A stretch of DNA of 64,000 bases from an uncultured Gammaproteobacteria bacterium (GTDB lineage Bacteria; Patescibacteriota; Patescibacteriia; UBA9934; GWF2-40-263), in contig CAYOCD010000001.1 of NCBI GenBank assembly GCA_964402425.1, forward strand, positions 163,442-227,441, read 5' to 3'. A program made the translations under genes and the position numbers. Below, one piece after another: positions 1,266 through 32,496 of the stretch. The stretch's first letter is position 1; every line of letters starts with the position of its first letter. The notes beneath the pieces were generated by a model. It did not search any database. It was given only the letters and a program-made list of their open reading frames with translations, and had not been told where the DNA came from.

Positions 1266-2357
1266 TCAGATCTTTTTTAAGTGTGACGACCGCGGCGCAA
1301 GCTTGAGACCCATCTGTTCACAATCGTGTCCAATGGACTCTAATGCATTCATTTGAACATTTCCTACTTCAGAATTTGCCCAACCTTGATGCGCATGCGC
1401 CATTGTTCCGCCAGAACATGCGTATGTCACAAACGGTTTGAGACGCATCATGTAAGACATGTCACATGTATCAGGTATGAGCACAAGCCCACCGTCCACA
1501 TGACACAAATCTTTACGTGAGCGCAGAACTCCTTCCGAAAGAGGATCTGGCACGGAAAAATTCAAGACAGCAGCCCCGTGTGGAATGAACGAGATCAACC
1601 CATTCGCTCTCGGCTTGTTTTTTCCCGTTACCCACACACGACAATCTTGCATGTCATGCAACTGCGTCACGTGAATCACGTTCGCCTGAAATTCAAACGG
1701 AAGTTCTTTTTGAATTTCCACAAATCGCTCGCGCGAATTCGTGTAAGCCTTAAAGACAAATCCTTTCTTGGCGAGGTGTAAGATCACCGCACGCCCAATT
1801 TTTGAGGTTGGACCGATCATGGCAATAGGCTTTCGTGCCCCATGCTCCAAATACAGCTCTTCAAGCCGCTTGATCACAAACCAAGCTGTGCATGTATCGC
1901 CATGGATGATGGGAATGTTAACCCCCGATTGCATGTACAGCCACTTCCCTCCCTGCGTAAGGGATTCATCTTTTGTCAAAGCGCCAAGACCGACCACATC
2001 TACACCCAATTCATTTTGGGCAAATAGCGTTGCGGCCAAGATCCGCTGTCGAATTTGCTCATGGCGGTTTTTCAAAAGAAAGTGCCACCCGAAATTATTG
2101 ATGAGAATTGTGTATCCATAGACACGATCATTCACTCGAAACGAGTCAACAACCTTGAACGATTCTTTGCGAAACAAGAAAAAAATACTCACCAGAAGAC
2201 AGATCGGGTAAAGCGGAAACAGAAAGAACGGGAATCCCGACTGCTTATGCAAAAAAGCAAACGCCTTGTGGTTCAATAACCAATTCCAAGGCTCTACGTA
2301 ATGCGCAATAAAGGCATATTTTTTGGTTTGCAACATGAGTCTTTTCCTCCACAACAA
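1266..2357 (-). CDS. NAD(P)-binding oxidoreductase resembling the cyanobacterial acyl-ACP reductase (AAR) / semialdehyde dehydrogenase-like family, with an N-terminal hydrophobic insertion
   Basis: 363-aa ORF. HGDTCTAWFV and IAMIGPTSKIGRAVILHLAKKG (GxxGxIG Rossmann) parallel AAR TGNTHTAYVI / VAVVGATGDIGSAV. An N-terminal TM-like segment FPFFLFPLYPICLLVSIFFLF is present. The family call is by recalled similarity only. Confidence 0.5.
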   Translation of the reverse strand: MLWRKRLMLQTKKYAFIAHYVEPWNWLLNHKAFAFLHKQSGFPFFLFPLYPICLLVSIFFLFRKESFKVVDSFRVNDRVYGYTILINNFGWHFLLKNRHEQIRQRILAATLFAQNELGVDVVGLGALTKDESLTQGGKWLYMQSGVNIPIIHGDTCTAWFVIKRLEELYLEHGARKPIAMIGPTSKIGRAVILHLAKKGFVFKAYTNSRERFVEIQKELPFEFQANVIHVTQLHDMQDCRVWVTGKNKPRANGLISFIPHGAAVLNFSVPDPLSEGVLRSRKDLCHVDGGLVLIPDTCDMSYMMRLKPFVTYACSGGTMAHAHQGWANSEVGNVQMNALESIGHDCEQMGLKLAPRSSHLKKI

Positions 2358-2369
2358 CTGTACTCCCTC

Positions 2370-2409
2370 AGTACAGAGAGCTGTCTCTTCAGAAACAGCT
2401 CTCTGTACT
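2370..2409 (-). other. 15-bp perfect inverted repeat hairpin (agtacagagagctgt / acagctctctgtact, 10-nt loop) between the response-regulator stop and the oxidoreductase start; no T-run
   Basis: Seen directly in sequence. Lies within the 51-nt spacer of the HK-oxidoreductase-RR operon, so it may be an intra-operon attenuator or processing hairpin. Confidence 0.35.
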
Positions 2410-2801
2410 CACGAAACAGTAAGCCCAAGCAAAACCTGAATCTTTTCAATAAAATCCTTTTCCTCTATTCCTTTATGCATGTACTCAATCTTATACGCTT
2501 GTTTTAATGTACGCTCAACATCTAGAGACAAATCTTCTGCCGTCAGCATGGAGATAGGTGTTTCCCCCAACTCACCTTCTTGTCGTAATCGAATCGCTGT
2601 TTTCATGCCATCTTCATCACCCGGCATATGCATATCCATCAAAATCAAATCAGGTTTCATGCGACGAGCCATTTCTCTTCCTTCTACACCATTATGGGCA
2701 TAAAGCGTGTTATATCCCAACTTTGATAAACGCCCACCAAAAAGACGCTGAATGAGCGGATCATCATCAATGAGGAGTATGCATTTGAGTTTTTCAGCCA
2801 T
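2409..2801 (-). CDS. Single-domain response regulator (CheY-like receiver, no output domain)
   Basis: 130 aa: ILLIDDD...LILMDMHMPGDEDG...K motifs of the REC domain (Asp pocket, phospho-acceptor D, conserved K). Confidence 0.8.
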   Translation of the reverse strand: MAEKLKCILLIDDDPLIQRLFGGRLSKLGYNTLYAHNGVEGREMARRMKPDLILMDMHMPGDEDGMKTAIRLRQEGELGETPISMLTAEDLSLDVERTLKQAYKIEYMHKGIEEKDFIEKIQVLLGLTVS

Positions 2802-2833
2802 ACGAAGAAGAGTTTGAACTTTTTACAAACCAA

Positions 2834-3604
2834 TTATACCTGGAGCAATGCAAAATACCAATGAAACAAAGAGGAACCTGTCAATAGAACAATAACGGTT
2901 CCCGTAACAAGAAAAGTTCCAAATGGCATTCGTGTTTTACGGTTTACTCTCTTAAGAAGAAGCAAACCACCTCCAACAATCGCCCCAATGAAATACGAAA
3001 GAAAAAGAGCAACAAGTCCATTTGTAACCCCAAGTAAACATCCCATCAACACCCCCATACGGATATCTCCCCCACCAACCCATGCACCTTGAGACAAAAG
3101 AAACTGTACCAGAAAAAAACCACCAACAACAACCATGCCAAGCAACATGGATGATAAGGAAATTATCTGGAAACCCGTATTCATCACAAATACAAACACA
3201 ATTGCAGGGATAGTGAATTTGTCTGGAATTAACATGTAACGGAGATCGTACACAAATAAAAGCACGAGTATCGATCCGATCACACAATCCCGAAACAAGA
3301 CAGGAGAGGAAGTTGCACCCTGCAGAAATCGAGTCAGAAAAAGAACAAAAAGAAAACCAATCGCCGTCTCTAAAAGAAGGTACTGCCAATCGATCTTATG
3401 TTTACAATTCCGACACCTTCCACCAAGAAACAAGAAGCTCAAAACAGGAATAAGATCAAACGCACGAATTGTTGTATGACAATGCATACATTTAGATCGT
3501 CCGTACACAACTGTTTCGTGTTCAGGTGCTCGAAAAATAATCACATTTAAAAAACTTCCAACACAGGCCCCAAGAAGAAAACCCAAGAGAAGCAACATAA
3601 GCAC
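2834..3604 (-). CDS. pilD: Type IV prepilin leader peptidase (A24 family, PilD-like)
   Basis: 256 aa, polytopic. An N-terminal CxxC...CxxC zinc pair (CMHCHTT...CRNCKHKI) is followed by the peptidase A24 membrane core with conserved Asp-containing loops (GGGDIRMG). Confidence 0.85.
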   Translation of the reverse strand: MLMLLLLGFLLGACVGSFLNVIIFRAPEHETVVYGRSKCMHCHTTIRAFDLIPVLSFLFLGGRCRNCKHKIDWQYLLLETAIGFLFVLFLTRFLQGATSSPVLFRDCVIGSILVLLFVYDLRYMLIPDKFTIPAIVFVFVMNTGFQIISLSSMLLGMVVVGGFFLVQFLLSQGAWVGGGDIRMGVLMGCLLGVTNGLVALFLSYFIGAIVGGGLLLLKRVNRKTRMPFGTFLVTGTVIVLLTGSSLFHWYFALLQV

Positions 3605-5023
3605 CTATTCCTTTGCGACCGGCAATTGATGCACAACGGCCTTCACTTCTTTTTCTGAACTCAATTTCTTTTTGACCACCGAAACAATCTTGTTAATATC
3701 AACAATTTCTTGTGCGCCGGATTCCATATCACGAATGATAATTGTTCCGTCCAACACTTCTTTTTGTCCAAGAATGATGGTGTATTGAACCGCGAGTTTA
3801 TTCGCCGCTTCAAGTTGAGCTTTCAAAGCATTCTTTCCAAAAGCTTCCGCAACTGGAATTTGTGCCATACGGAAATCTTCATACAATTTGAGACCAACAC
3901 GACGCGCAGCATCTCCAAGTTGTGCAAAAAAGACTTGTGGTTCAGGACGTTGCGGTGGATTGATTCCCATTTCTCCAAGCGCCTTTGCCACACGATCCAT
4001 TCCGATTGCAAATCCACATGCGGGCGTTGGACGACCGCCGATCAGTTCAACAAGTCCGTTGTAACGTCCGCCGCCACCGAGCGCATTTTGTGCGCGCTCA
4101 CCGTCATCCGTATCAAGAACGAATTCAAATACAGTGTGCGTATAATAATCGAGTCCGCGTACAAGATGTGGATTCAATACGTATGGAACTTGAATTTCCT
4201 CAAGGAACTCGAGCACTTTTGTGAAGTGTTCTTTTGATGCATCATCAAGCCAATCCAAAATCTGAGGCGCTTCTGCAAGCAACTCTTTCATTCCTTCTTC
4301 TTTACTATCAAGTAAACGAAGAGGGCTCTTTTGCAAACGGCGCTTATCATCTTCTGATAATTTGTTGCGATGTGGGCGGAAATAACTTGTGAGCTCTGCC
4401 AAGTATGCCTGGCGAGATTCTGGTGTGCCAATAGAGTTCACCTGAACTTTTACATTGAGTCCAAGATCTTTAAAAATTTGATATCCAAGCACAATGAGTT
4501 GAGCATCCATGATGGGCTCATGTGTTCCAAACACTTCAAATCCCGCTTGATAAAACTGGCGATATCGCCCAGCTTGTGGACGATCGTGACGGAACATTGG
4601 TCCTTCATACCAGAGCTTTACGGGTTGGGGACGATCTAACATTCCATGATTGATATATGCACGGGCAGCTGAAGCGGTTGCTTCAGGACGAAGCGCAACC
4701 ATGCGCTCTGACGGATCCACGAATGCATACATTTCTTTTTCAATAATATCTGTTTGTTTTCCAACAGTACGTTGAAATAAATCTGCACGCTCCAAAACAG
4801 GAAGATCAATACGATCAAACGTATATGCCTCTGCCAAGTTACGAACCGTGTCACGCACAAAATTCCACTTCCCTTGTTCTTCAGGCAAAATATCACGGAA
4901 TCCACGCAAAAGTTCTGGCGGAGCTTTTGCTCCACTTTTCTTTTCTTTTTCTTCTCCTCCTTCTGCTTTCTTTGGAGCAGGTGCCGGCTTTGGAGCTTCT
5001 TTCTTTTTATTGAATGGGGACAT
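3605..5023 (-). CDS. hisS: Histidyl-tRNA synthetase with a Lys/Ala/Pro-rich N-terminal extension
   Basis: Class II motifs: LRPEATASAARAY, GGGGRYNGLV (GGRYD-type), GFAIGMDRV. Start chosen at MSPFNKKKEAP (ATG); the ORF track allows 5050 via an upstream in-frame start. Confidence 0.9.
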   Translation of the reverse strand: MSPFNKKKEAPKPAPAPKKAEGGEEKEKKSGAKAPPELLRGFRDILPEEQGKWNFVRDTVRNLAEAYTFDRIDLPVLERADLFQRTVGKQTDIIEKEMYAFVDPSERMVALRPEATASAARAYINHGMLDRPQPVKLWYEGPMFRHDRPQAGRYRQFYQAGFEVFGTHEPIMDAQLIVLGYQIFKDLGLNVKVQVNSIGTPESRQAYLAELTSYFRPHRNKLSEDDKRRLQKSPLRLLDSKEEGMKELLAEAPQILDWLDDASKEHFTKVLEFLEEIQVPYVLNPHLVRGLDYYTHTVFEFVLDTDDGERAQNALGGGGRYNGLVELIGGRPTPACGFAIGMDRVAKALGEMGINPPQRPEPQVFFAQLGDAARRVGLKLYEDFRMAQIPVAEAFGKNALKAQLEAANKLAVQYTIILGQKEVLDGTIIIRDMESGAQEIVDINKIVSVVKKKLSSEKEVKAVVHQLPVAKE

Positions 5024-5089
5024 ACAAAAAATAATGATGACGAGAAACAAGTAATAAGAATAAACGTGTAATGCTACAAAAAAACTTTT

Positions 5090-5698
5090 CTACAAATTAA
5101 ACGTTGGATCTGGAAATGTTGAGGCGCGATTAAGAGGCAATCCTCTTACCCAGACACGTCCAATAAACTGCTCTCGTTTTACCGGTCCGAAACTGCGAGA
5201 ATCCATACTTTCTGGACGATTATCACCCATGACCCAATACTCATCCGCCCCGAGCGTAGACTTTTTCATGCCATCTGTCGAGACATCTCCCAAATACGCT
5301 TCTGTCAATAACACTCCGTTTGGATGATCTTCATTATAGATAGTGACGTGTCCCCCACTTACCTCTACAGTCTCTCCGGGGAGTCCGATCACGCGTTTGA
5401 TAAAAAACTCGCTTGGATTACGCGGGTAACGAAATACCACGATCTCTCCACGCTCCGGTGTGCGCAAACGATAGGAAAGTTCATCAATAATCAGATATTC
5501 AGAATCGTAAAAATTTGGTTCCATGCTCGCCCCTTTCACATAAAACGGCTGAATGAGAAAGTAACGAATTGGAATAATAATAGCGCTTGAGATGAGAATA
5601 ATCTGAATCACTTCAACGAAAAATAAAGCAACAGACGATCCAACAGGTCCGAGTTTTTTTAAAAAGATCGGTTCCAATTTTTGAAAGGTTTTTGACAT
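5090..5698 (-). CDS. lepB: Signal peptidase I (S26 family)
   Basis: 202 aa, N-terminal TM anchor, catalytic GASMEPN (Ser) box, KRVIGLPGE, and GDNR box. Confidence 0.9.
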   Translation of the reverse strand: MSKTFQKLEPIFLKKLGPVGSSVALFFVEVIQIILISSAIIIPIRYFLIQPFYVKGASMEPNFYDSEYLIIDELSYRLRTPERGEIVVFRYPRNPSEFFIKRVIGLPGETVEVSGGHVTIYNEDHPNGVLLTEAYLGDVSTDGMKKSTLGADEYWVMGDNRPESMDSRSFGPVKREQFIGRVWVRGLPLNRASTFPDPTFNL

Positions 5699-6821: not shown

Positions 6822-8408
6822 ATGGAGCATCCAAAAATCGATTTCCTGAAAGAAAAATACGATCTTAAAAAACCAGACGAAAAACCGTTTCTTTTTTTTC
6901 GCAAGCGCCTGATCGCCTTTTTTTTCGTTTTAGCAACCATTGGGGCTGTATTCTCTTTTCAGGTCCATACAACATCTGATACCAGCGGAAGTCCTACAGA
7001 ACTTTCCCTTTTTTCGATTATCAAAAATTTTATTTTACCGAGCGATGATTTACTCATGGGAGAACAAGAAGATCGGGTCAATTTTTTGTTAACAGGAATC
7101 GGTGGAGAAGGTCATGCGGGTCCACAACTCACAGATACTATTTTATTTGCGAGCTATCGTCCTTCCACAAAAAAACTCGCGTTTCTTTCTCTTCCTCGCG
7201 ACATGACTGTTCAGATCCCCGATCGCGGATATCAAAAAGTCAATCACGTAAACGCTTATGCTGAAACCGAAAAACCTGGCACGGGAGGTGAGGTAACAGC
7301 ACAATTTATCGGCAACACACTCAAACAACCTGTTCATTATTATTTACGCGTTGACTTTAATGGATTTGCTGAATTTATTGACGCCATTGGCGGGGTGGAT
7401 GTCTATGTCGATCACCCATTTACAGATCCAGCCTATCCTATTATCGGAAAAGAAAAAGACACGTGCGGAAACTCCAAAGCATCCATGAATGCCACAGCAG
7501 AAGAACTTTCAAATTCCACATCAGGACCATCTATTCTTCCTCCAGATTACAGTTGTCGATTTACAAATCTTACATTCAAAGAAGGGCTCACACACATGAA
7601 CGGTACAACAGCCCTTGCCTTTGTCCGCTCTCGTCACGGAAACAACGGAGAAGGTTCAGACTTTGCACGTTCACGCAGACAACAAAAAATTATGCTTGCG
7701 GTAAAAGACAAAATCTTTTCCGCTTCTACTTTTTTAAATCCAGTTCGCATCACAGGAATTTTTGACACGCTTCAAAAAAACATCTCCACGAATCTTTCTG
7801 TTTCTCAGCTCATGCGTCTTGGAAAAGAGTTTCGTGATTTACAATCAGAAGAAGTTATTAGTCATGTCATTGACGATTCTCCCAACTCCCCTCTTTACGC
7901 CACAAACTTGAATGGAGCGTATGTCCTTCTTCCAAAGAATGATGACTGGACCACTCTTCAACAAATGGCTCTCTATATTTACACTCCAGAACCAACAACA
8001 ACCCCCAAACCAAAAATCGCAGAAACACCAGCAGCAAAAACAGAACCGGTTGTTCGTGTAGAAATTCAAAATGGCACAGATGTAACAGGTCTTGGTGTTC
8101 GAGCCTCACAGTTACTCACGGCAAATGAAGAGTTTCACGTTGTCAAAGTTGGCAATGCTGTCACGCGCGACTACAACCACACCGTCATTTATGACCTCAC
8201 AAATGGCACAAAAACAGATGAATTAAAGGCTCTTCAAACGTTTTTTCAAGCAGACATCGCCAAAGCTTCCGGATGGATGCAAAACAATGAGGTCGTCCAA
8301 AAACAAGTTGCCGTCACCCCAGATGAAACAAAGCCCCTCACAACGGGTTCAAAGGTTGACTTTTTGGTCATTCTCGGGCAGAGTGCGCGAGATATCGTCA
8401 TGAAATAA
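6822..8408 (+). CDS. LytR-CpsA-Psr (LCP) family cell-envelope phosphotransferase with N-terminal TM anchor and C-terminal LytR_C-like domain
   Basis: LLTGIGGEGHAGPQLTDTILFASY, LSLPRDM, VNHVNAY, VRSRHG...DFARSRRQQ are LCP signatures. Start at MEHPKIDFL; the track's 6741 is an alternative. Confidence 0.8.
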   Translation: MEHPKIDFLKEKYDLKKPDEKPFLFFRKRLIAFFFVLATIGAVFSFQVHTTSDTSGSPTELSLFSIIKNFILPSDDLLMGEQEDRVNFLLTGIGGEGHAGPQLTDTILFASYRPSTKKLAFLSLPRDMTVQIPDRGYQKVNHVNAYAETEKPGTGGEVTAQFIGNTLKQPVHYYLRVDFNGFAEFIDAIGGVDVYVDHPFTDPAYPIIGKEKDTCGNSKASMNATAEELSNSTSGPSILPPDYSCRFTNLTFKEGLTHMNGTTALAFVRSRHGNNGEGSDFARSRRQQKIMLAVKDKIFSASTFLNPVRITGIFDTLQKNISTNLSVSQLMRLGKEFRDLQSEEVISHVIDDSPNSPLYATNLNGAYVLLPKNDDWTTLQQMALYIYTPEPTTTPKPKIAETPAAKTEPVVRVEIQNGTDVTGLGVRASQLLTANEEFHVVKVGNAVTRDYNHTVIYDLTNGTKTDELKALQTFFQADIAKASGWMQNNEVVQKQVAVTPDETKPLTTGSKVDFLVILGQSARDIVMK

Positions 8409-8441
8409 AAGAATGGTAATTCGACTTTTTCACGTTCCCCT

Positions 8442-9809
8442 ATGACCTCCAACAATCTCCCAACCGTCGCGCTCATTGGTCGCACGAACGTTGGAAAATC
8501 CACTCTGTTCAATCGCATGATCGAACAATCAAAAGCCCTGGTCTCTGCAACGGCAGGTACCACACGCGATCGAAACGATGGCGAGTGTTTGTGGCGCGGA
8601 AGAACGATTCGAGTTGTGGATACCGGAGGATTAGATGTCAACAAACAAGACGAAATCGAAAAAAACATTTTGATCCAATCAGAGCTTGCCATGAAAGAGG
8701 CGGACATTATTTTATTTGTTGTCGATCTAAAAAATCCCCCACTCCCTACAGACCTTGAACTCGCAAGCAAACTCTGGAAAACAAAAACACCTATTATCGT
8801 TGTTGGAAACAAAGCAGAAAAAGCCGCGGAACGCCGACGCGCCCACCAACCCGATTGGCGCCTTCGTGGGCTCCCAGCCCCTATCGCCGTCTCTGCAACA
8901 CAAGGCTCTGGTGTTGGAGATCTCCTTGATCTTGTTTATGAAAAACTGACAGAGATCGGCAAACATCCCGTTGACTATAAAGAATTAAACGCAACACGTG
9001 TTGCGGTCATTGGAAAACCAAACGTCGGAAAATCCACTCTGTTAAACGCCCTCGTTGGAACAGATCGATTTATCACGAGCTCCATCGCACACACAACACG
9101 CGAACCAAATGACGTTCTGTTACACATCGGAGACAAAAACTATTTGATTTACGACACGGCCGGAATGCGTAAGCATGCAAAAATCAGCAAAGGTGGTGGA
9201 CTTGAAAAAATGGCCGTTGATAAAAACGAGTGGGTCATTCGTCAATCAGATGTTTCTCTCCTTGTCCTAGACGCAACAGAACCCATCGGTACACAAGAAA
9301 AACACCTCGCAGGAATTTTGGGGGACTCAGGAGCGGGTGTAATTATCATCGTGAACAAATGGGACTTAGTAAAAGACAAAGACACAACCACCATCAATGA
9401 TTACAAAAAATATCTTGCTGGTGAACTCCCATTCATCACATGGGCTCCGGTTATGTTCGTGAGTGCTCTCACAAAACAACGCACAAGCACCATCTTTAAA
9501 ATGATCGATGAAGTAAACCATAACAGAAGCATCGAAATCGACATGAAAGAATTGGACGGTTTCTTACGAGAAGCTCTTCGCACTCACCTTCCCTCTCTTG
9601 GAAAAGGAAAGAATCCTCCAAAAGTTATGGGGCTTAAACAAGTCTCCACAAAACCCCCAAAATTTGATCTCACCTTAAAAGCACAGCGTACAGACGCCCT
9701 TCACCCAAGCTATCTCCGTTTTATTGAGAACCGCTTGCGTGTCTTGCATGATTTTCGTGGAACACCAATCAATATAAAAGTAAGAATTGCAACAGCTGTA
9801 TCAAAATAA
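8442..9809 (+). CDS. der: Ribosome-biogenesis GTPase Der/EngA (tandem GTPase domains plus KH-like C-terminus)
   Basis: Two G1 boxes GRTNVGKST and GKPNVGKST, DTGG/DTAG, NKAE/NKWD. Confidence 0.95.
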   Translation: MTSNNLPTVALIGRTNVGKSTLFNRMIEQSKALVSATAGTTRDRNDGECLWRGRTIRVVDTGGLDVNKQDEIEKNILIQSELAMKEADIILFVVDLKNPPLPTDLELASKLWKTKTPIIVVGNKAEKAAERRRAHQPDWRLRGLPAPIAVSATQGSGVGDLLDLVYEKLTEIGKHPVDYKELNATRVAVIGKPNVGKSTLLNALVGTDRFITSSIAHTTREPNDVLLHIGDKNYLIYDTAGMRKHAKISKGGGLEKMAVDKNEWVIRQSDVSLLVLDATEPIGTQEKHLAGILGDSGAGVIIIVNKWDLVKDKDTTTINDYKKYLAGELPFITWAPVMFVSALTKQRTSTIFKMIDEVNHNRSIEIDMKELDGFLREALRTHLPSLGKGKNPPKVMGLKQVSTKPPKFDLTLKAQRTDALHPSYLRFIENRLRVLHDFRGTPINIKVRIATAVSK

Positions 9810-9811
9810 TC

Positions 9812-9849
9812 AAAAAACTCGACGCATTCACGTCGAGTTTTTTGTTTTC
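9812..9849 (+). terminator. Rho-independent terminator after der
   Basis: aaaaaa-ctcgacg-cattca-cgtcgag-ttttttgttttc: 7-bp GC-rich stem plus T-run. It is followed by a cataat -10-like box ahead of pth. Confidence 0.8.
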
Positions 9850-9875
9850 TTTGGAATATGGCATAATCTTCGTAT

Positions 9876-10400
9876 ATGAAATTGATTGTTGGACTTGGAA
9901 ATCCTGGAAAGAAATATGAACGAACACGTCACAATGTGGGGTTTTTGGTTGTAGAAGAACTTGCAAAACAATTAAACGTCCCCTTTAAAAACAAAACGTC
10001 GTTTGTGGCAGAAGTAGCAGAAGGAGATGGAATAACCCTCATGAAACCACAGACCTTCATGAATGTAAGTGGTCGCGCCGTAAAATCATATCTCACAAAA
10101 CACAAATGCACATCTGAAGATGTTTTAGTTATTTATGACGATGCAGACATACCATTTGGAGAGATCAAATTCAAACAAGGCGGATCTTCTGCGGGACACA
10201 ACGGCATGCAGTCCATTATTGATCAATTTGAAAAAGGAACATCCGTCGCACGCATTCGCATTGGAATTGGTCGTCCAACACACATAGACACACCCCTTGA
10301 TGTGTTCGTCTTACAAAAATGGACAAATGAAGAGGAAAAGAACATCCCCAACATGATCAAAACAACGATTGAAAAAATACATGCCCACATCGGATCTTAA
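9876..10400 (+). CDS. pth: Peptidyl-tRNA hydrolase
   Basis: MKLIVGLGNPG...HNG motifs; 174 aa. Confidence 0.95.
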   Translation: MKLIVGLGNPGKKYERTRHNVGFLVVEELAKQLNVPFKNKTSFVAEVAEGDGITLMKPQTFMNVSGRAVKSYLTKHKCTSEDVLVIYDDADIPFGEIKFKQGGSSAGHNGMQSIIDQFEKGTSVARIRIGIGRPTHIDTPLDVFVLQKWTNEEEKNIPNMIKTTIEKIHAHIGS

Positions 10401-11490
10401 ATACTGGCTCGCCCTTACCCGCATTCCAAATTTTGGTGCGGTACGGATCGGAAAATTATTTCGCGCGTTCCCAACCATGGAACGCGCGTTTTCGGCATCT
10501 GTTATGGATTTACTCGAGGCGGGTTTTGATGCAAATCTCGCAAACCATTTTTTACAAACACGCATTCACATAAGTCCAGAGCAAGAATTAGAAAAATTAC
10601 ACAACGCAAATGTACAAGCGGTCACAAGACGTGATCCTGAATATCCACCTCTTCTTTCTAAAATTTATGATCCGCCAGCTGTTCTTTTTTTTCGCGGAAC
10701 TCTTCCTGACCCATCTCTAAAACACATCGCTGTTGTCGGCACACGCCAACCATCCAAATACGGAACATACGCGGCAGAAAAAATTGTTGGAACCCTTGCC
10801 GAATCCGGTGTTGTTATTGTAAGTGGACTTGCCTATGGCGTTGATTCCCTTGCGCACGAATCAACAATTCAACACAACGGAAAAACAATTGCCGTTTTAG
10901 GTTCGGGGGTTGATGCCCCTTCTATTTACCCGGCTGGTAATCGCACCATCGCGTCTCATATTCTTGCACACGGCGGCGCGATTGTTTCAGAATATCCTGT
11001 TGGGACTCTTCCCCTTCCGTTTCATTATCCACTTCGCAATCGCATTATTGCTGGACTCGCACACGGAACTCTTGTCATTGAAGCTGCACAAAAATCCGGC
11101 TCTCTTATCACTGCACGTGCGGCACTAGAAGGTGGAAGAGATGTTTATGCCGTTCCAGGAAACATTGATTCAGAAAAGAGCGAAGGGCCGAATAATCTTT
11201 TAAAGATGGGGGCGGTCCCTGTTACGTGTGCAGAAGATATTCTTGGAATTGCAAACACATCCATTCCCTCAAAAGAAAAATCACGCACAGCCCCTGTTTA
11301 CACATATGAACCACGCTCAGAAACAGAGCGTGTCATTCTTGCGCAACTTGCAAAAGATCCTGTACACGCAGATGAAGTTGCACGTGCAACCCTTCTCCCA
11401 ATTGAAGCCCTCGGAAGCGTTCTCACACTCCTTGAAATGAAAGGAATTATAAAACATGAAGGCGGTCGTTATTATACGCGTCAAAAATAG
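10381..11490 (+). CDS. dprA: DNA processing protein DprA (Smf)
   Basis: Rossmann-like core VSGLAYGVDSLAHE, GSGVD, IDSE..GPNNLL, plus a C-terminal winged-helix. Start at MPTSDLKYW overlaps the pth end by about 20 nt. Confidence 0.9.
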   Translation: MPTSDLKYWLALTRIPNFGAVRIGKLFRAFPTMERAFSASVMDLLEAGFDANLANHFLQTRIHISPEQELEKLHNANVQAVTRRDPEYPPLLSKIYDPPAVLFFRGTLPDPSLKHIAVVGTRQPSKYGTYAAEKIVGTLAESGVVIVSGLAYGVDSLAHESTIQHNGKTIAVLGSGVDAPSIYPAGNRTIASHILAHGGAIVSEYPVGTLPLPFHYPLRNRIIAGLAHGTLVIEAAQKSGSLITARAALEGGRDVYAVPGNIDSEKSEGPNNLLKMGAVPVTCAEDILGIANTSIPSKEKSRTAPVYTYEPRSETERVILAQLAKDPVHADEVARATLLPIEALGSVLTLLEMKGIIKHEGGRYYTRQK

Positions 11491-25410: not shown

Positions 25411-25565
25411 GTCTTTTGTGTCATCCTGAGCAAAGCGAAGGATCTCTCCCTGCAAATTATGTGTGTATTTTACCTGATCGAGAGACAACACGCAAAACAA
25501 AAAACCCGAGTTTTCCCCAGGTTTTTTCGCTCTTTCCTCCCTTTATCCTTTCTACTCTCTTCTTT

Positions 25566-27206: not shown

Positions 27207-28337
27207 ATGAATTGGAAATGGTGGACAAGTTCTCCTGCGGTACCTGCTGAAAAGCATCGAGACGCGCCACGAGAAAAAAAGCCGAAAAAAAGTACGTCGG
27301 TTTCGCTCGGGATTGCCTTTGATGATTTTCAAAACCTTTATGAACAATCCGTGTTGTGGGCCTTTAAAAAAGGCCAACCAATGGATCGCGACTCCCCAAT
27401 GGCGAGATGGAATTATCGAGAAGGTCCTGTTGTAGATCTTGAAAACACAGACGCTTTGAGACGAGGGTATTATCACCCTAATGGTGATCTCGATCAGATG
27501 CGTCAAATTGCCAGAGCGGATGTCATGAAAAACATCCCTGTTGATCTTCTCCTTGAATTTTTGAAAACCAAGGAAAGCAAAGATCTTCCGAACACACTCT
27601 ATGGTTTGTGCAAAGAAGCGATTGAATGGGCACGTCAACAAGATCTTATCAAGAAAGAACACTACAACCGAACAATGGACGATCAGCAAATCAAATCTCT
27701 CATCGAGACACATCAGGTTTCCTACTCTGTCATCTTGCACTACATCAAGAGCAGAATTGATGAAGAAGCCGATCGATTCCTTGGTTTCAACTCTGAACTT
27801 GAGATCATGATCAGTAAATACAAAAAAGGGCTATGGGAAGCTCAAGATCTTCTTACATCTGTTAAGAAAGATCTTCGAAATCCAACAGCTGCACGGCAGT
27901 TTCCTTACCTTCTTCGCGAACAACAGCAACTCGAAGAAACAATTTCCCGATACAACACAACAATCATCGCCCTTGAACATCACAAAAGATCACTCAGAAC
28001 ATTCTTTGAACTCTGTCGGAAAAAAATACAGATCTTAGAAGAACCTCTTGTACACGCACAACGCAGCCGTCGAATCGCGCGCGTTGTCGAAGAAGCAAAA
28101 CAAGGTGAGCTCGAAGCTCAACAGCTCATTTTGTCCACTCTGACCGATTTGTCCGGACGTCTCTGTTTGTTTCACGAAGAAATGATCGATCTCCTCACAA
28201 ATGTTGGCACAACCGTTGCCCCCATAATCAATAGTGCCGAGGAAAATCCACATGAAATTGTTCGAACCCTTGACTCTGTCGTCGAACGTTTCATGAGCGA
28301 ACTCACTCATGCACTCCCCACTTCTCCAGCCCCATAA
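27207..28337 (+). CDS. Hypothetical helical protein (about 376 aa)
   Basis: Start at MNWKWW with SD aagagg 8 nt upstream. No motifs recognised; the N-terminal basic stretch PREKKPKKSTS was noted. Confidence 0.5.
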   Translation: MNWKWWTSSPAVPAEKHRDAPREKKPKKSTSVSLGIAFDDFQNLYEQSVLWAFKKGQPMDRDSPMARWNYREGPVVDLENTDALRRGYYHPNGDLDQMRQIARADVMKNIPVDLLLEFLKTKESKDLPNTLYGLCKEAIEWARQQDLIKKEHYNRTMDDQQIKSLIETHQVSYSVILHYIKSRIDEEADRFLGFNSELEIMISKYKKGLWEAQDLLTSVKKDLRNPTAARQFPYLLREQQQLEETISRYNTTIIALEHHKRSLRTFFELCRKKIQILEEPLVHAQRSRRIARVVEEAKQGELEAQQLILSTLTDLSGRLCLFHEEMIDLLTNVGTTVAPIINSAEENPHEIVRTLDSVVERFMSELTHALPTSPAP

Positions 28338-28340
28338 CAC

Positions 28341-28366
28341 AAACATCCAAATGGATGTTTTTTTAA
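28341..28366 (+). terminator. Rho-independent terminator
   Basis: acatcca-aa-tggatgt followed by ttttttt just after the stop. Confidence 0.7.
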
Positions 28367-28429
28367 TACAACCACGGCTTTACAGAAAACAAACAAAAAA
28401 CCCATTCAATAGAATGAGTCAGATAACGA

Positions 28430-29263
28430 CTACCAGGTCTCCCGATGCTTCTTTCCATCAAGCAAATTGTCATGCGATCTTGTTTGGTGAGTTGTATTAG
28501 AACTTCCACCCGTTGATTCGCTGTAGTGATCACCAAAGATCCCTTCTCGATCTCGAGATATGGACTTCACTCCACCATCAGTACCGCGCGTCTCTCGATA
28601 GTGACCGCCGATGATGCCCTCACGATCACGTGTGCGCCCAATCACCTGTCCGGAAGCAGATCGATGCTCACGGTAATTGTCACCAGGTAAACCCTCTGCA
28701 TCGCGCGACTCGCTAATAAACTGACCTCGGCTGTTGTATGTTCGCCAAACAACATTACTGAGAAAATCCGTCTCTCTTACTGTCTTAAAGGGCTTGAACT
28801 TAAAGAGTTCTCTACAATCTTTGCACCGATTGGGCGGGTCCCATCCCTGCTTTACACAGTTGATGAGCGTGCCTGTTGGAATCGTAAATGTGCTCCCGCA
28901 ATGCGAGCACGACTTATACTGAGGCGGATGATTTTGCTTACATGTTTTGCAAAACACAGGAGGATGATCCCAGTCACGATTCGCATGAATCGTTCCACCA
29001 CATCCTTCACAAGGCTTATCATACCACTTGGCTTTCTGTGTTTCTTTGCAACCCGCACAATAGCGAGGAGGATTACTCCACTCTCGGTGAACACGTATGG
29101 CCGCACGACAAGACTCACACGGCTTTTCGTACCACATGCTTTGTCGCGTTTCCTTGCAAGATTTACAAATCGACGGAGGATTTGTCCAATCTTCATGAAC
29201 GCGTATTTCGCCTCCACAGTCTCCACAGGAAACGGTGTACCAACCGGCCATGACTCCTCCCAA
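28430..29263 (-). CDS. Cys-rich repeat protein: four tandem CxxC...CxxC zinc-ribbon-like modules then three R/D/E/G-rich C-terminal repeats; function unknown
   Basis: Repeats WYxxxCxxCGGxIxVHxDWxxPPxxCKxCKET x3 plus a degenerate fourth, then SRDREGIxGxHYxE-type units x3. GC-richer than neighbours by eye. The overlapping minus ORF 28852..29322 is rejected. Confidence 0.6.
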   Translation of the reverse strand: MGGVMAGWYTVSCGDCGGEIRVHEDWTNPPSICKSCKETRQSMWYEKPCESCRAAIRVHREWSNPPRYCAGCKETQKAKWYDKPCEGCGGTIHANRDWDHPPVFCKTCKQNHPPQYKSCSHCGSTFTIPTGTLINCVKQGWDPPNRCKDCRELFKFKPFKTVRETDFLSNVVWRTYNSRGQFISESRDAEGLPGDNYREHRSASGQVIGRTRDREGIIGGHYRETRGTDGGVKSISRDREGIFGDHYSESTGGSSNTTHQTRSHDNLLDGKKHRETW

Positions 29264-29326: not shown

Positions 29327-29357
29327 AAAACCAAAGGCATTTGAAACCTTTGGTTTT
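29327..29357 (-). terminator. Rho-independent terminator downstream of asnS
   Basis: aaaaccaaagg-catttgaaa-cctttggtttt: 11-bp stem, followed on minus by a T-rich tract. Confidence 0.7.
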
Positions 29358-31840: not shown

Positions 31841-32161
31841 TTAAAGTTCTTTCGAAGAAATAATCTTCTTTCCCACCGCACCCGCGAACAATCGAATCGC
31901 CGGGCGGTCTTCTTTTTTATATATGATTGGAACTCCGAGAAGTGTTTTACATTTCGGACATTCGAGATTCGACTTCAGCCATTTATGTGTGTCGACATTC
32001 ACCATCCGATCAAGATACATCCGTTTCAGAATTCCCGGTCCGTCTTTTTGATAAATCACAATCGGCGCTATGCACGATTCGCAAAACACCTGAAGCCAAC
32101 GCGAAAATCCTCCGCGTGCTTTTTTGAACTTATCCGATTGGAATTTTGAATTTTTAGACAC
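31841..32161 (-). CDS. Small hypothetical zinc-ribbon protein (CxxC...CPKC)
   Basis: 106 aa; Cys pairs FCESC and ECPKC about 45 aa apart. Confidence 0.45.
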   Translation of the reverse strand: MSKNSKFQSDKFKKARGGFSRWLQVFCESCIAPIVIYQKDGPGILKRMYLDRMVNVDTHKWLKSNLECPKCKTLLGVPIIYKKEDRPAIRLFAGAVGKKIISSKEL

Positions 32162-32163
32162 AG

Positions 32164-32496
32164 TTATTTTAACTTTGCTTTTCTACGCGCTTCATAATTC
32201 CATGGAGTCTCTTTTGAGATACGATCAGGTCCCGCATCAAAAACATACTCCTCGATAAATGGAATAACGATATCTCTGTGAAACTTTTCTCCACGAAACT
32301 TATCTGAATCATTCCAAATATAGACTATTGCTTGAGCTTTCCCGCCCATACGTAAAGCTTTAACAACTTTCCGAAGTGATGTGGACTTTATATCTTCCAG
32401 TTCAAGTCCATTTTCTTTCATGAGAGTCTGCAGCTGATCCGCAACCATATTCCCTTCTGCAATTTCGCGCTCAATTTGTTCGCGTCCTTCAGACAT
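32164..32496 (-). CDS. Hypothetical 110-aa protein in the position usually taken by infA/rpmJ after map
   Basis: No IF-1 OB signature. Charged N-terminal helix; not assignable. Confidence 0.45.
   Translation of the reverse strand: MSEGREQIEREIAEGNMVADQLQTLMKENGLELEDIKSTSLRKVVKALRMGGKAQAIVYIWNDSDKFRGEKFHRDIVIPFIEEYVFDAGPDRISKETPWNYEARRKAKLK

Follow-up and report, generated by a model that had tools for sequence, protein, structure and literature searches.

A Cys4 finger array joined to a 25-residue repeat domain in a small protein encoded between aspS and asnS

The gene and its neighbours

The window, by which is meant the whole stretch of 64,000 nucleotides of DNA that was analysed, carries on its minus strand an open reading frame that ends at 28430 and lies between aspS and asnS. 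It encodes a cysteine-rich protein made up of three short Cys4 modules, one long Cys4 module and a C-terminal repeat domain (Table 1). The gene is convergent with a reading frame for a 376-residue protein, and this arrangement between aspS and asnS, reported in the first-pass annotation, is directly seen in the layout of the reading frames.

Table 1. Positions of the features at the locus, numbered along the window.
Feature	Position	Strand	Description
376-aa all-helical ORFan	27207..28337	+	context only, convergent
Terminator-like hairpin of the 376-aa ORFan	28341-28360		found by hairpin scan
Terminator-like hairpin followed by a T-run	28399..28420	-	10 nt past the stop codon of the Cys4 gene
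Coding sequence of the Cys4 gene	28430..29251	-	273 aa plus stop; stop codon 28430-28432; ATG start at 29251
C-terminal domain, residues 157-273	28433..28783	-	about 4.7 units of a 25-aa beta-hairpin repeat (predicted)
Long Cys4 module, residues 112-156	28784..28918	-	C-x2-C-x24-C-x2-C with predicted inserted helix, then RELFKFKPF; zf_Tbcl-like
Short Cys4 module 3, residues 76-111	28919..29026	-	family alignment, repeat analysis and model
Short Cys4 module 2, residues 40-75	29027..29134	-	protein and DNA repeat analysis and model
Short Cys4 module 1, residues 4-39	29135..29242	-	WYTVSCGDCGGEIRVHEDWTNPPSICKSCKETRQSM; protein and DNA repeat analysis and model
Shine-Dalgarno sequence	29254..29261	-	GGGAGGAG; read from the sequence; overlaps TTG 29261-29263
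Perfect 11-bp hairpin	29327..29357	-	AAAACCAAAGG / CCTTTGGTTTT; just past the asnS stop; read from the sequence

Both the program that listed the reading frames and the first-pass annotation began the gene at a TTG at 29263. This start was rejected because the TTG sits within the Shine-Dalgarno sequence that is followed downstream by the ATG at 29251, and the closest orthologues begin with M-A/S-G/K-W-Y at the position of that ATG. Hence the strand and the end of the gene stand as first described but its start moves inwards, and the protein has 273 residues, the 277-residue numbering referring to the frame read from the TTG.

Against the orthologues from three Candidatus Uhrbacteria loci (L011, L012 and L013, which are 89, 80 and 78% identical to the window protein, respectively) the overall dN/dS is 0.04-0.09, with similar values in both halves of the protein. 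The gene is therefore real, as shown by the low dN/dS together with the Shine-Dalgarno sequence and its ATG and the terminator-like hairpin behind the stop codon, and it is under strong purifying selection; the alternative of a spurious reading frame was discarded on the dN/dS values. A second hairpin, which the hairpin scan missed because its loop is 9 nt long, lies just past the end of asnS and suggests that the Cys4 gene is not simply read through from asnS, so that the gene may well have a promoter of its own.

Synonymous divergence from the most similar orthologue (L011) is very uneven: dS reaches 2.16 in the finger half but is 0.33 in the tail half, and dN/dS is low in both halves; intragenic recombination between Uhrbacteria lineages may be the cause. 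Long shadow reading frames also run over the gene on both strands in alternate frames and appear ‘conserved’ across phyla (loci L001-L033). It is the strong conservation of the coding frame that gives rise to this artefact, and such shadow frames could mislead automated gene callers.

The gene had been described as richer in GC than its flanks. Its GC content of 0.49 does exceed the window mean of 0.44 (standard deviation 0.039 in gene-sized windows), but the difference is marginal, as 8% of such windows are as high and the values for aspS and asnS are 0.47 and 0.46. The content of Cys, Gly, Arg and Pro could be the source of the raised value.

The convergent 376-residue gene had been grouped with the Cys4 gene as a small island, a view that no longer holds. 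Apart from the window, the helical gene is confined to three close Uhrbacteria loci (L010, L011 and L012). Among 5.8 billion proteins it accounts for just 2 clusters (at 100% and 84% identity), and it has only weak matches of a coiled-coil type (the ZorA tail, LmuB and fibrinogen). It is missing from the orthologous locus that encodes the 78%-identical protein (L001/L013), which instead has an unrelated 173-residue gene on the other side, it stands beside none of the distant homologues, and each of the two convergent genes has its own terminator-like hairpin. As a partner it was thus rejected; judged from its sequence distribution, it is taken to be a lineage-specific ORFan with no functional link to the Cys4 gene.

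Within Uhrbacteria the Cys4 gene occupies the same site between asnS and aspS, downstream of a block of ribosomal-protein, secY, adk, map, ruvX and recO genes, while the slot next to it varies. Beyond this group no common neighbour emerged. All-against-all clustering of the reading frames from 33 loci and the window region returned no common family, only the shadow frames recurring, and a Pfam scan of 119 neighbouring reading frames from 21 non-Uhrbacteria loci found no shared neighbour. Upstream partner candidates of 173 (L001), 203 (L008) and 100 (L005) residues were set aside as unrelated to one another. Individual neighbours outside Uhrbacteria, given as raw occurrences, include Tn7-like TnsD/TniQ, integrases, ParE toxins, AbiEii-like ATPases, UvrD with type I restriction-modification genes, and Cas1. 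The contexts of four tail-only or finger-only relatives (P0151, P0149, P0043 and P0021) were uninformative.

Two further observations concern the surrounding block. Between map and ruvX are two unannotated minus-strand genes, one at 31841-32161 that encodes 106 residues with a C-x2-C ... C-x2-C pattern and one at 32164-32496 that encodes 110 residues. Reading frames of the same size without a Pfam match are found at the map-ruvX position of one other locus (L009, matched by size and position only), and none is called in L001. The position has the look of a further variable slot within the conserved block. Upstream of scpA, at 25420-25446 on the plus strand, is a 27-nt element, GTCATCCTGAGCAAAGCGAAGGATCTC, present as a single copy in the window, which reads VILSKAKDL, HPEQSEGS or LRFAQDD depending on the frame. 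It falls within a stretch through which the long scpA reading frame is 16 codons (NLQGEILRFAQDDTKD) longer than in L001, and it resembles a short repeat of many bacterial genomes.

The Cys4 modules and their predicted fold

The N-terminal part of the protein had been described as four tandem modules of about 37 residues. Three of them conform to this description, being 36-residue modules in exact register that fit the pattern W-Y-x3-C-x2-C-G-x-I-x-V-H-x-D-W-x2-P-P-x2-C-K-x-C-K; the fourth is a distinct module of 45 residues. Pairwise identities among the three short modules are 15-17 of 36 positions, and their summed identity of 47 compares with 6.0 +/- 2.3 for shuffled sequences, none of 20,000 shuffles reaching 47. 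The repetition is also visible in the underlying DNA, which has a 108-nt period with 66-78% identity. Module 3 is the best conserved of the short modules and is present in all 16 homologues. The long module has a 24-residue spacer between its CxxC pairs, a predicted inserted helix, and within that helix an extra cysteine, C132 (C136 in the 277-residue numbering), that is nearly specific to the family. Among full-length homologues the long module, the RELFK-x-KPF segment and a T-Y-N-S-x-G-Q motif are invariant or nearly so, and the number of short modules varies.

The whole protein was modelled with AlphaFold2 at a mean pLDDT of 85 from a 17-sequence family alignment, and a second model of module 3 with the long module gave a pLDDT of 83; the structural model is thus built on 16-17 sequences only. 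Each short module is predicted to start with a strand, W-Y-x-x-x, that leads into a C-x2-C knuckle and a second strand, x-I-R-V-H, followed by a loop, D-W-x2-P-P, and the second C-x2-C, whose first Cys is placed just before a short helix and whose second Cys falls in its first turn. In the predicted long module this order of elements recurs, a 10-residue helix being added after the hairpin, and again the second C-x2-C starts a helix.

It is this position of the second CxxC at the N-terminus of a helix that makes the modules treble-clef-like rather than classical zinc ribbons, as they had been labelled. In the long module the knuckle is predicted to lie in a beta-hairpin with the second pair at the helix N-terminus, the hallmarks of a treble clef, whereas the classical ribbon, in which both CxxC knuckles lie in beta-hairpins of a three-stranded sheet, is seen in neither model, and the zinc-ribbon Pfam models DZR, Zn_ribbon_6 and Zn_ribbon_8 score below their cut-offs. 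At the level of the predicted structure, the four modules are thus shown to be treble-clef fingers.

The earlier proposal that each module binds one zinc ion through four cysteines is well supported, albeit indirectly, by the conservation of the ligands, the fixed spacing and the predicted placement of the ligands in the knuckle and at the helix N-terminus. In the family alignment all four ligand cysteines of the long module are invariant, as are three of the four in module 3, where the third ligand (C105 in the 277-residue numbering) is kept in at least 90% of the sequences. Among 299 short modules taken from relatives the spacer is 16 residues in 292, and ligand 3 is a Cys in 237 modules and a His in the other 62 (21%), the extraction pattern having admitted only Cys or His at this position and fixed the other three ligands as Cys. 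Within the limits of that pattern, the conserved ligands, fixed spacing and replacement by another ligand only are what would be expected of a zinc-binding Cys4 module.

The first-pass annotation could not place the protein in a known family, and this remains the case. Searches of Pfam, NCBIfam, PADLOC, PHROGs, PDB sequences and PDB folds gave no family of established function: the whole protein and its isolated modules fall below every Pfam and NCBIfam threshold, and no PADLOC or PHROGs family matches the protein. What the searches did add is a pair of distant Pfam relatives, DUF7571 and zf_Tbcl, neither of which has an assigned function, and a literature search on these two names found nothing.

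The 36-residue short modules align to positions 43-72 of DUF7571 (PF24455, function unknown), with scores of 17.9 bits for the window protein and 13.7-16.1 for single modules against a cut-off of 27. One relative (P0024) just passes with 27.6 bits; matches at E <=0.01 were obtained for 27 of 150 relatives, the best of them at 4.6e-10. PF23477 (zf_Tbcl_2) and the NCBIfam model TIGR04272, a CxxC-x17-CxxC domain, are matched only weakly. The window protein differs in its tandem array, its W-Y ... D-W-x2-P-P signature and its CxxC-x16-CxxC spacing, and none of these models was built from such proteins.

The long module resembles zf_Tbcl (PF13451, a ‘probable treble clef domain’ of unknown function, formerly zf-trcl), with which it has in common C-x2-C-G-x2-F, a helix and G-W/F-x2-P-x-R/K-C-x2-C-R/K. 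Its score of 14.6 bits (E 0.034) falls short of the cut-off of 24, and the whole window protein is not listed for this family at E <=1. A relative with three long modules (P0030) exceeds the cut-off at 27.1 bits, in an alignment that covers profile positions 3-42 of 48, and zf_Tbcl matches occur in 5 of 150 relatives, with a best E of 9.5e-10. It is plausible, from these sequence matches, that the long module is related to zf_Tbcl, from which it differs in the extra helix cysteine, in the conserved RELFK-x-KPF extension, and in its place at the end of an array of short modules and ahead of a beta-repeat domain. A profile search with 44 residues of the long module gave one match only.

Searches of PDB sequences and with the family profile returned only marginal matches to C2H2 patterns (ZNF568, ZBTB17, SALL4 and BCL11). 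Like the window protein, eukaryotic C2H2 arrays have tandem zinc modules, and the similarity takes the form C-x2-C-G-K-x-F ... P-x-x-C-x2-C at E 1e-3 to 1e-2. Unlike them, the window protein lacks the His pair and has a different spacing and fold, and no module contains C-x2-4-C-x12-H-x3-5-H. The alignment bridges the first knuckles of two consecutive fingers in the wrong register, and kinship was therefore rejected in favour of coincidence.

The repeat domain and the distribution of relatives

The C-terminal repeats, first described as SRDREGIxGxHYxE-like units, are real and can be refined to a period of 25 residues with about 4.7 units of the form S/T-R-D-x-E-G-x-x-G-x-x-Y-x-E .... Autocorrelation of this region has its sole peak at a lag of 25, where identity reaches 29%; at the lags beside it the value is no higher than 10%. 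For the region from residue 160 onwards AlphaFold predicts ten antiparallel strands that would form a polar beta-meander, and the strands are indeed very polar in sequence, for instance S-E-S-R-D-A-E and Y-R-E-H-R-S. Among known folds, the tail comes closest to OspA variants, Rhs or teneurin shells, tubby and porin-like sheets. The central sheet of OspA, MORN arrays and Rhs/YD shells are likewise extended beta-hairpin or single-layer sheets, to which the predicted 25-residue polar meander may be compared. The repeat is without a match among Pfam or NCBIfam models, and neither MORN nor YD (Rhs) models match it in the window protein or the tail-only relatives, even at E <=10; the MORN match in one relative (P0114) is to a separate N-terminal region.

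Full-length homologues are rare and scattered, which answers the question of phylogenetic distribution raised by the first-pass annotation. They form 16 clusters in 5.8 billion proteins, all unnamed or ‘hypothetical’, and occur at 23 loci in 185,579 species genomes, with one genome taken per species. Three of the 23 loci are in Candidatus Uhrbacteria, to which the window itself evidently belongs. The others, at 43-56% identity, are in Acidobacteriota, Saccharibacteria, Kaiserbacteria, Roizmanbacteria, Actinomycetota, Dehalococcoidia, Synechococcus, Planctomycetota, Myxococcales, Geobacterales, Pseudomonadota and an Aenigmatarchaeota archaeon (DPANN). At phylum level the loci span Patescibacteria, Acidobacteriota, Cyanobacteria, Chloroflexota, Planctomycetota, Myxococcota, Actinomycetota, Pseudomonadota and the DPANN archaeon. 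Such a scatter across phyla at about 50% identity points to horizontal transfer. The behaviour of the gene is that of an accessory gene spread by such transfer and not that of a housekeeping gene, yet it has a fixed position in Uhrbacteria. Against the accessory reading, the Uhrbacteria copy is stable among housekeeping genes.

Searches by tblastn gave no match in 50,697 phage and 72,556 plasmid records and no paralogue in the window. Two IMG/VR contigs carry a copy with 49% identity, placed between two giant unannotated reading frames. On one of these putative viral contigs (L034) the homologue is flanked on the same strand by frames at 1477-5520 (1347 aa) and 6934-11352 (1472 aa), which have no Pfam or PADLOC match, the first having a weak tape-measure-like PHROG match only.

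A profile search of 1.84 billion representative sequences collected 704 proteins at E <=1e-3, and since the N-terminal fingers and the C-terminal repeat match largely different sets of these proteins, the two halves are modular. Finger copies per relative range from 0-6 for the short and 0-4 for the long type, with up to eight in one protein, and finger-only relatives have up to six short modules. Elsewhere the finger region is joined to SMC-like coiled coils or DUF1771, to a PNP_UDP phosphorylase or to a toxin-like C-terminus. In four relatives (P0057, P0093, P0105 and P0137) the short fingers follow N-terminal SMC-like or DUF1771 coiled coils, and in another (P0118) they lie beside a PNP_UDP phosphorylase, matched by an effector model of PADLOC, and a DnaJ-like CxxCxGxG segment. 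These are separate architectures.

Tail-only relatives have about five units of R-E/D-x-E-G-x-F-G-x-x-Y-x-E-H-x-D-x-x-G-x-V-x-G, and 24 of 25 such proteins contain membrane segments. In 11 of the 25 the repeat starts at residues 6-10, ahead of the first membrane helix and without a signal peptide, and in 13 it comes after the last membrane helix. From this placement the tail domain is, in these proteins, a cytoplasmic end of fixed size. The window protein itself is soluble, having neither a signal peptide nor a membrane segment.

Possible roles of the protein

The protein is tentatively considered to be a non-enzymatic, multivalent binding or adaptor protein, in which the finger array probably binds nucleic acid. 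The adaptor role is suggested by the lack of a catalytic domain. The finger array would serve as the ligand-binding arm, with an avidity tuned by copy number, and the beta-hairpin tail may provide a surface for protein-protein contacts or self-assembly. Variation in the number of fingers argues for a polymeric ligand, and in the cytoplasm this would most likely be nucleic acid, either DNA or RNA, given the cytoplasmic setting, the moderately basic charge of the family (pI 8.6-9.9, net charge +7 to +32) and the fusions of fingers to SMC-like and nucleotide-targeting partners. Against this, the protein is less basic than typical DNA-binding finger arrays, with charges close to neutral in modules 1 and 3 and in the tail.

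That moderate charge would fit as well with a pure protein-protein adaptor or regulator, in which the tail pairs onto the cytoplasmic repeats of membrane proteins or self-associates and the fingers recruit another protein, a reading of fairly low probability that nevertheless has several points in its favour. Contacts between proteins are a common role of treble-clef fingers, many membrane proteins carry this repeat domain as their cytoplasmic end, and the tail is predicted to be an exposed polar sheet, similar to the single-layer sheets of the OspA type, whose edges can pair. However, tblastn finds no repeat-bearing membrane protein in the window and none adjoins any homologue, and a variable number of fingers is more typical of polymer binding.

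The patchy occurrence across phyla at about 50% identity raises a third reading, namely that the protein is a component of a conflict system on mobile elements, in which it could serve defence or anti-defence or work as a sensor or decoy, either by itself or together with unlinked partners. The raw occurrences of TnsD/TniQ, integrases, toxin-antitoxin genes, type I restriction-modification genes with UvrD, and Cas1 beside some homologues are consistent with such a role, as are the two IMG/VR contigs and the fusion of short modules to a PNP effector recognised by PADLOC in P0118. It is nonetheless unlikely, since the protein itself has no PADLOC or PHROG match, is absent from the phage and plasmid records searched and has no conserved partner gene, and since the Uhrbacteria copy occupies a stable housekeeping position under strong purifying selection. 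A zinc or redox buffer or switch, storing or sensing zinc or oxidants in the manner of metallothionein or Hsp33, is suggested by the 17 cysteines among 273 residues and the four predicted zinc sites but is very improbable, as the strong conservation of the non-ligand positions W, D-W, P-P and G-W argues for folded recognition modules over simple metal storage and the large conserved tail, which is not built on cysteine, would be left unexplained.

The multivalent binding or adaptor protein, with fingers that would contact nucleic acid, remains the reading tentatively adopted here. A broader picture, which has to be regarded as rather doubtful, is that the tail is a widespread undescribed cytoplasmic domain, tethered for the most part to membrane proteins, whose combination with a variable finger array marks out a new class of horizontally mobile, stand-alone proteins. 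Their task would be the sensing or sequestration of nucleic acid or another polymeric ligand, perhaps in the course of genetic conflicts.

The finding alone opens no long-standing question. It does, though, delineate two building blocks, a tandem treble-clef finger (CxxC-x16-CxxC with W-Y ... D-W-x2-P-P) that is linked to DUF7571 and zf_Tbcl, and a domain of 25-residue beta-hairpin repeats, the combination being that of a Cys4 finger array, which is of a known kind, joined to an apparently undescribed repeat domain. Small, soluble and well predicted, the protein is a tractable entry point for biochemistry, and once both blocks are defined, some of the proteins now left as ‘hypothetical’ in CPR and other uncultured genomes could be annotated.
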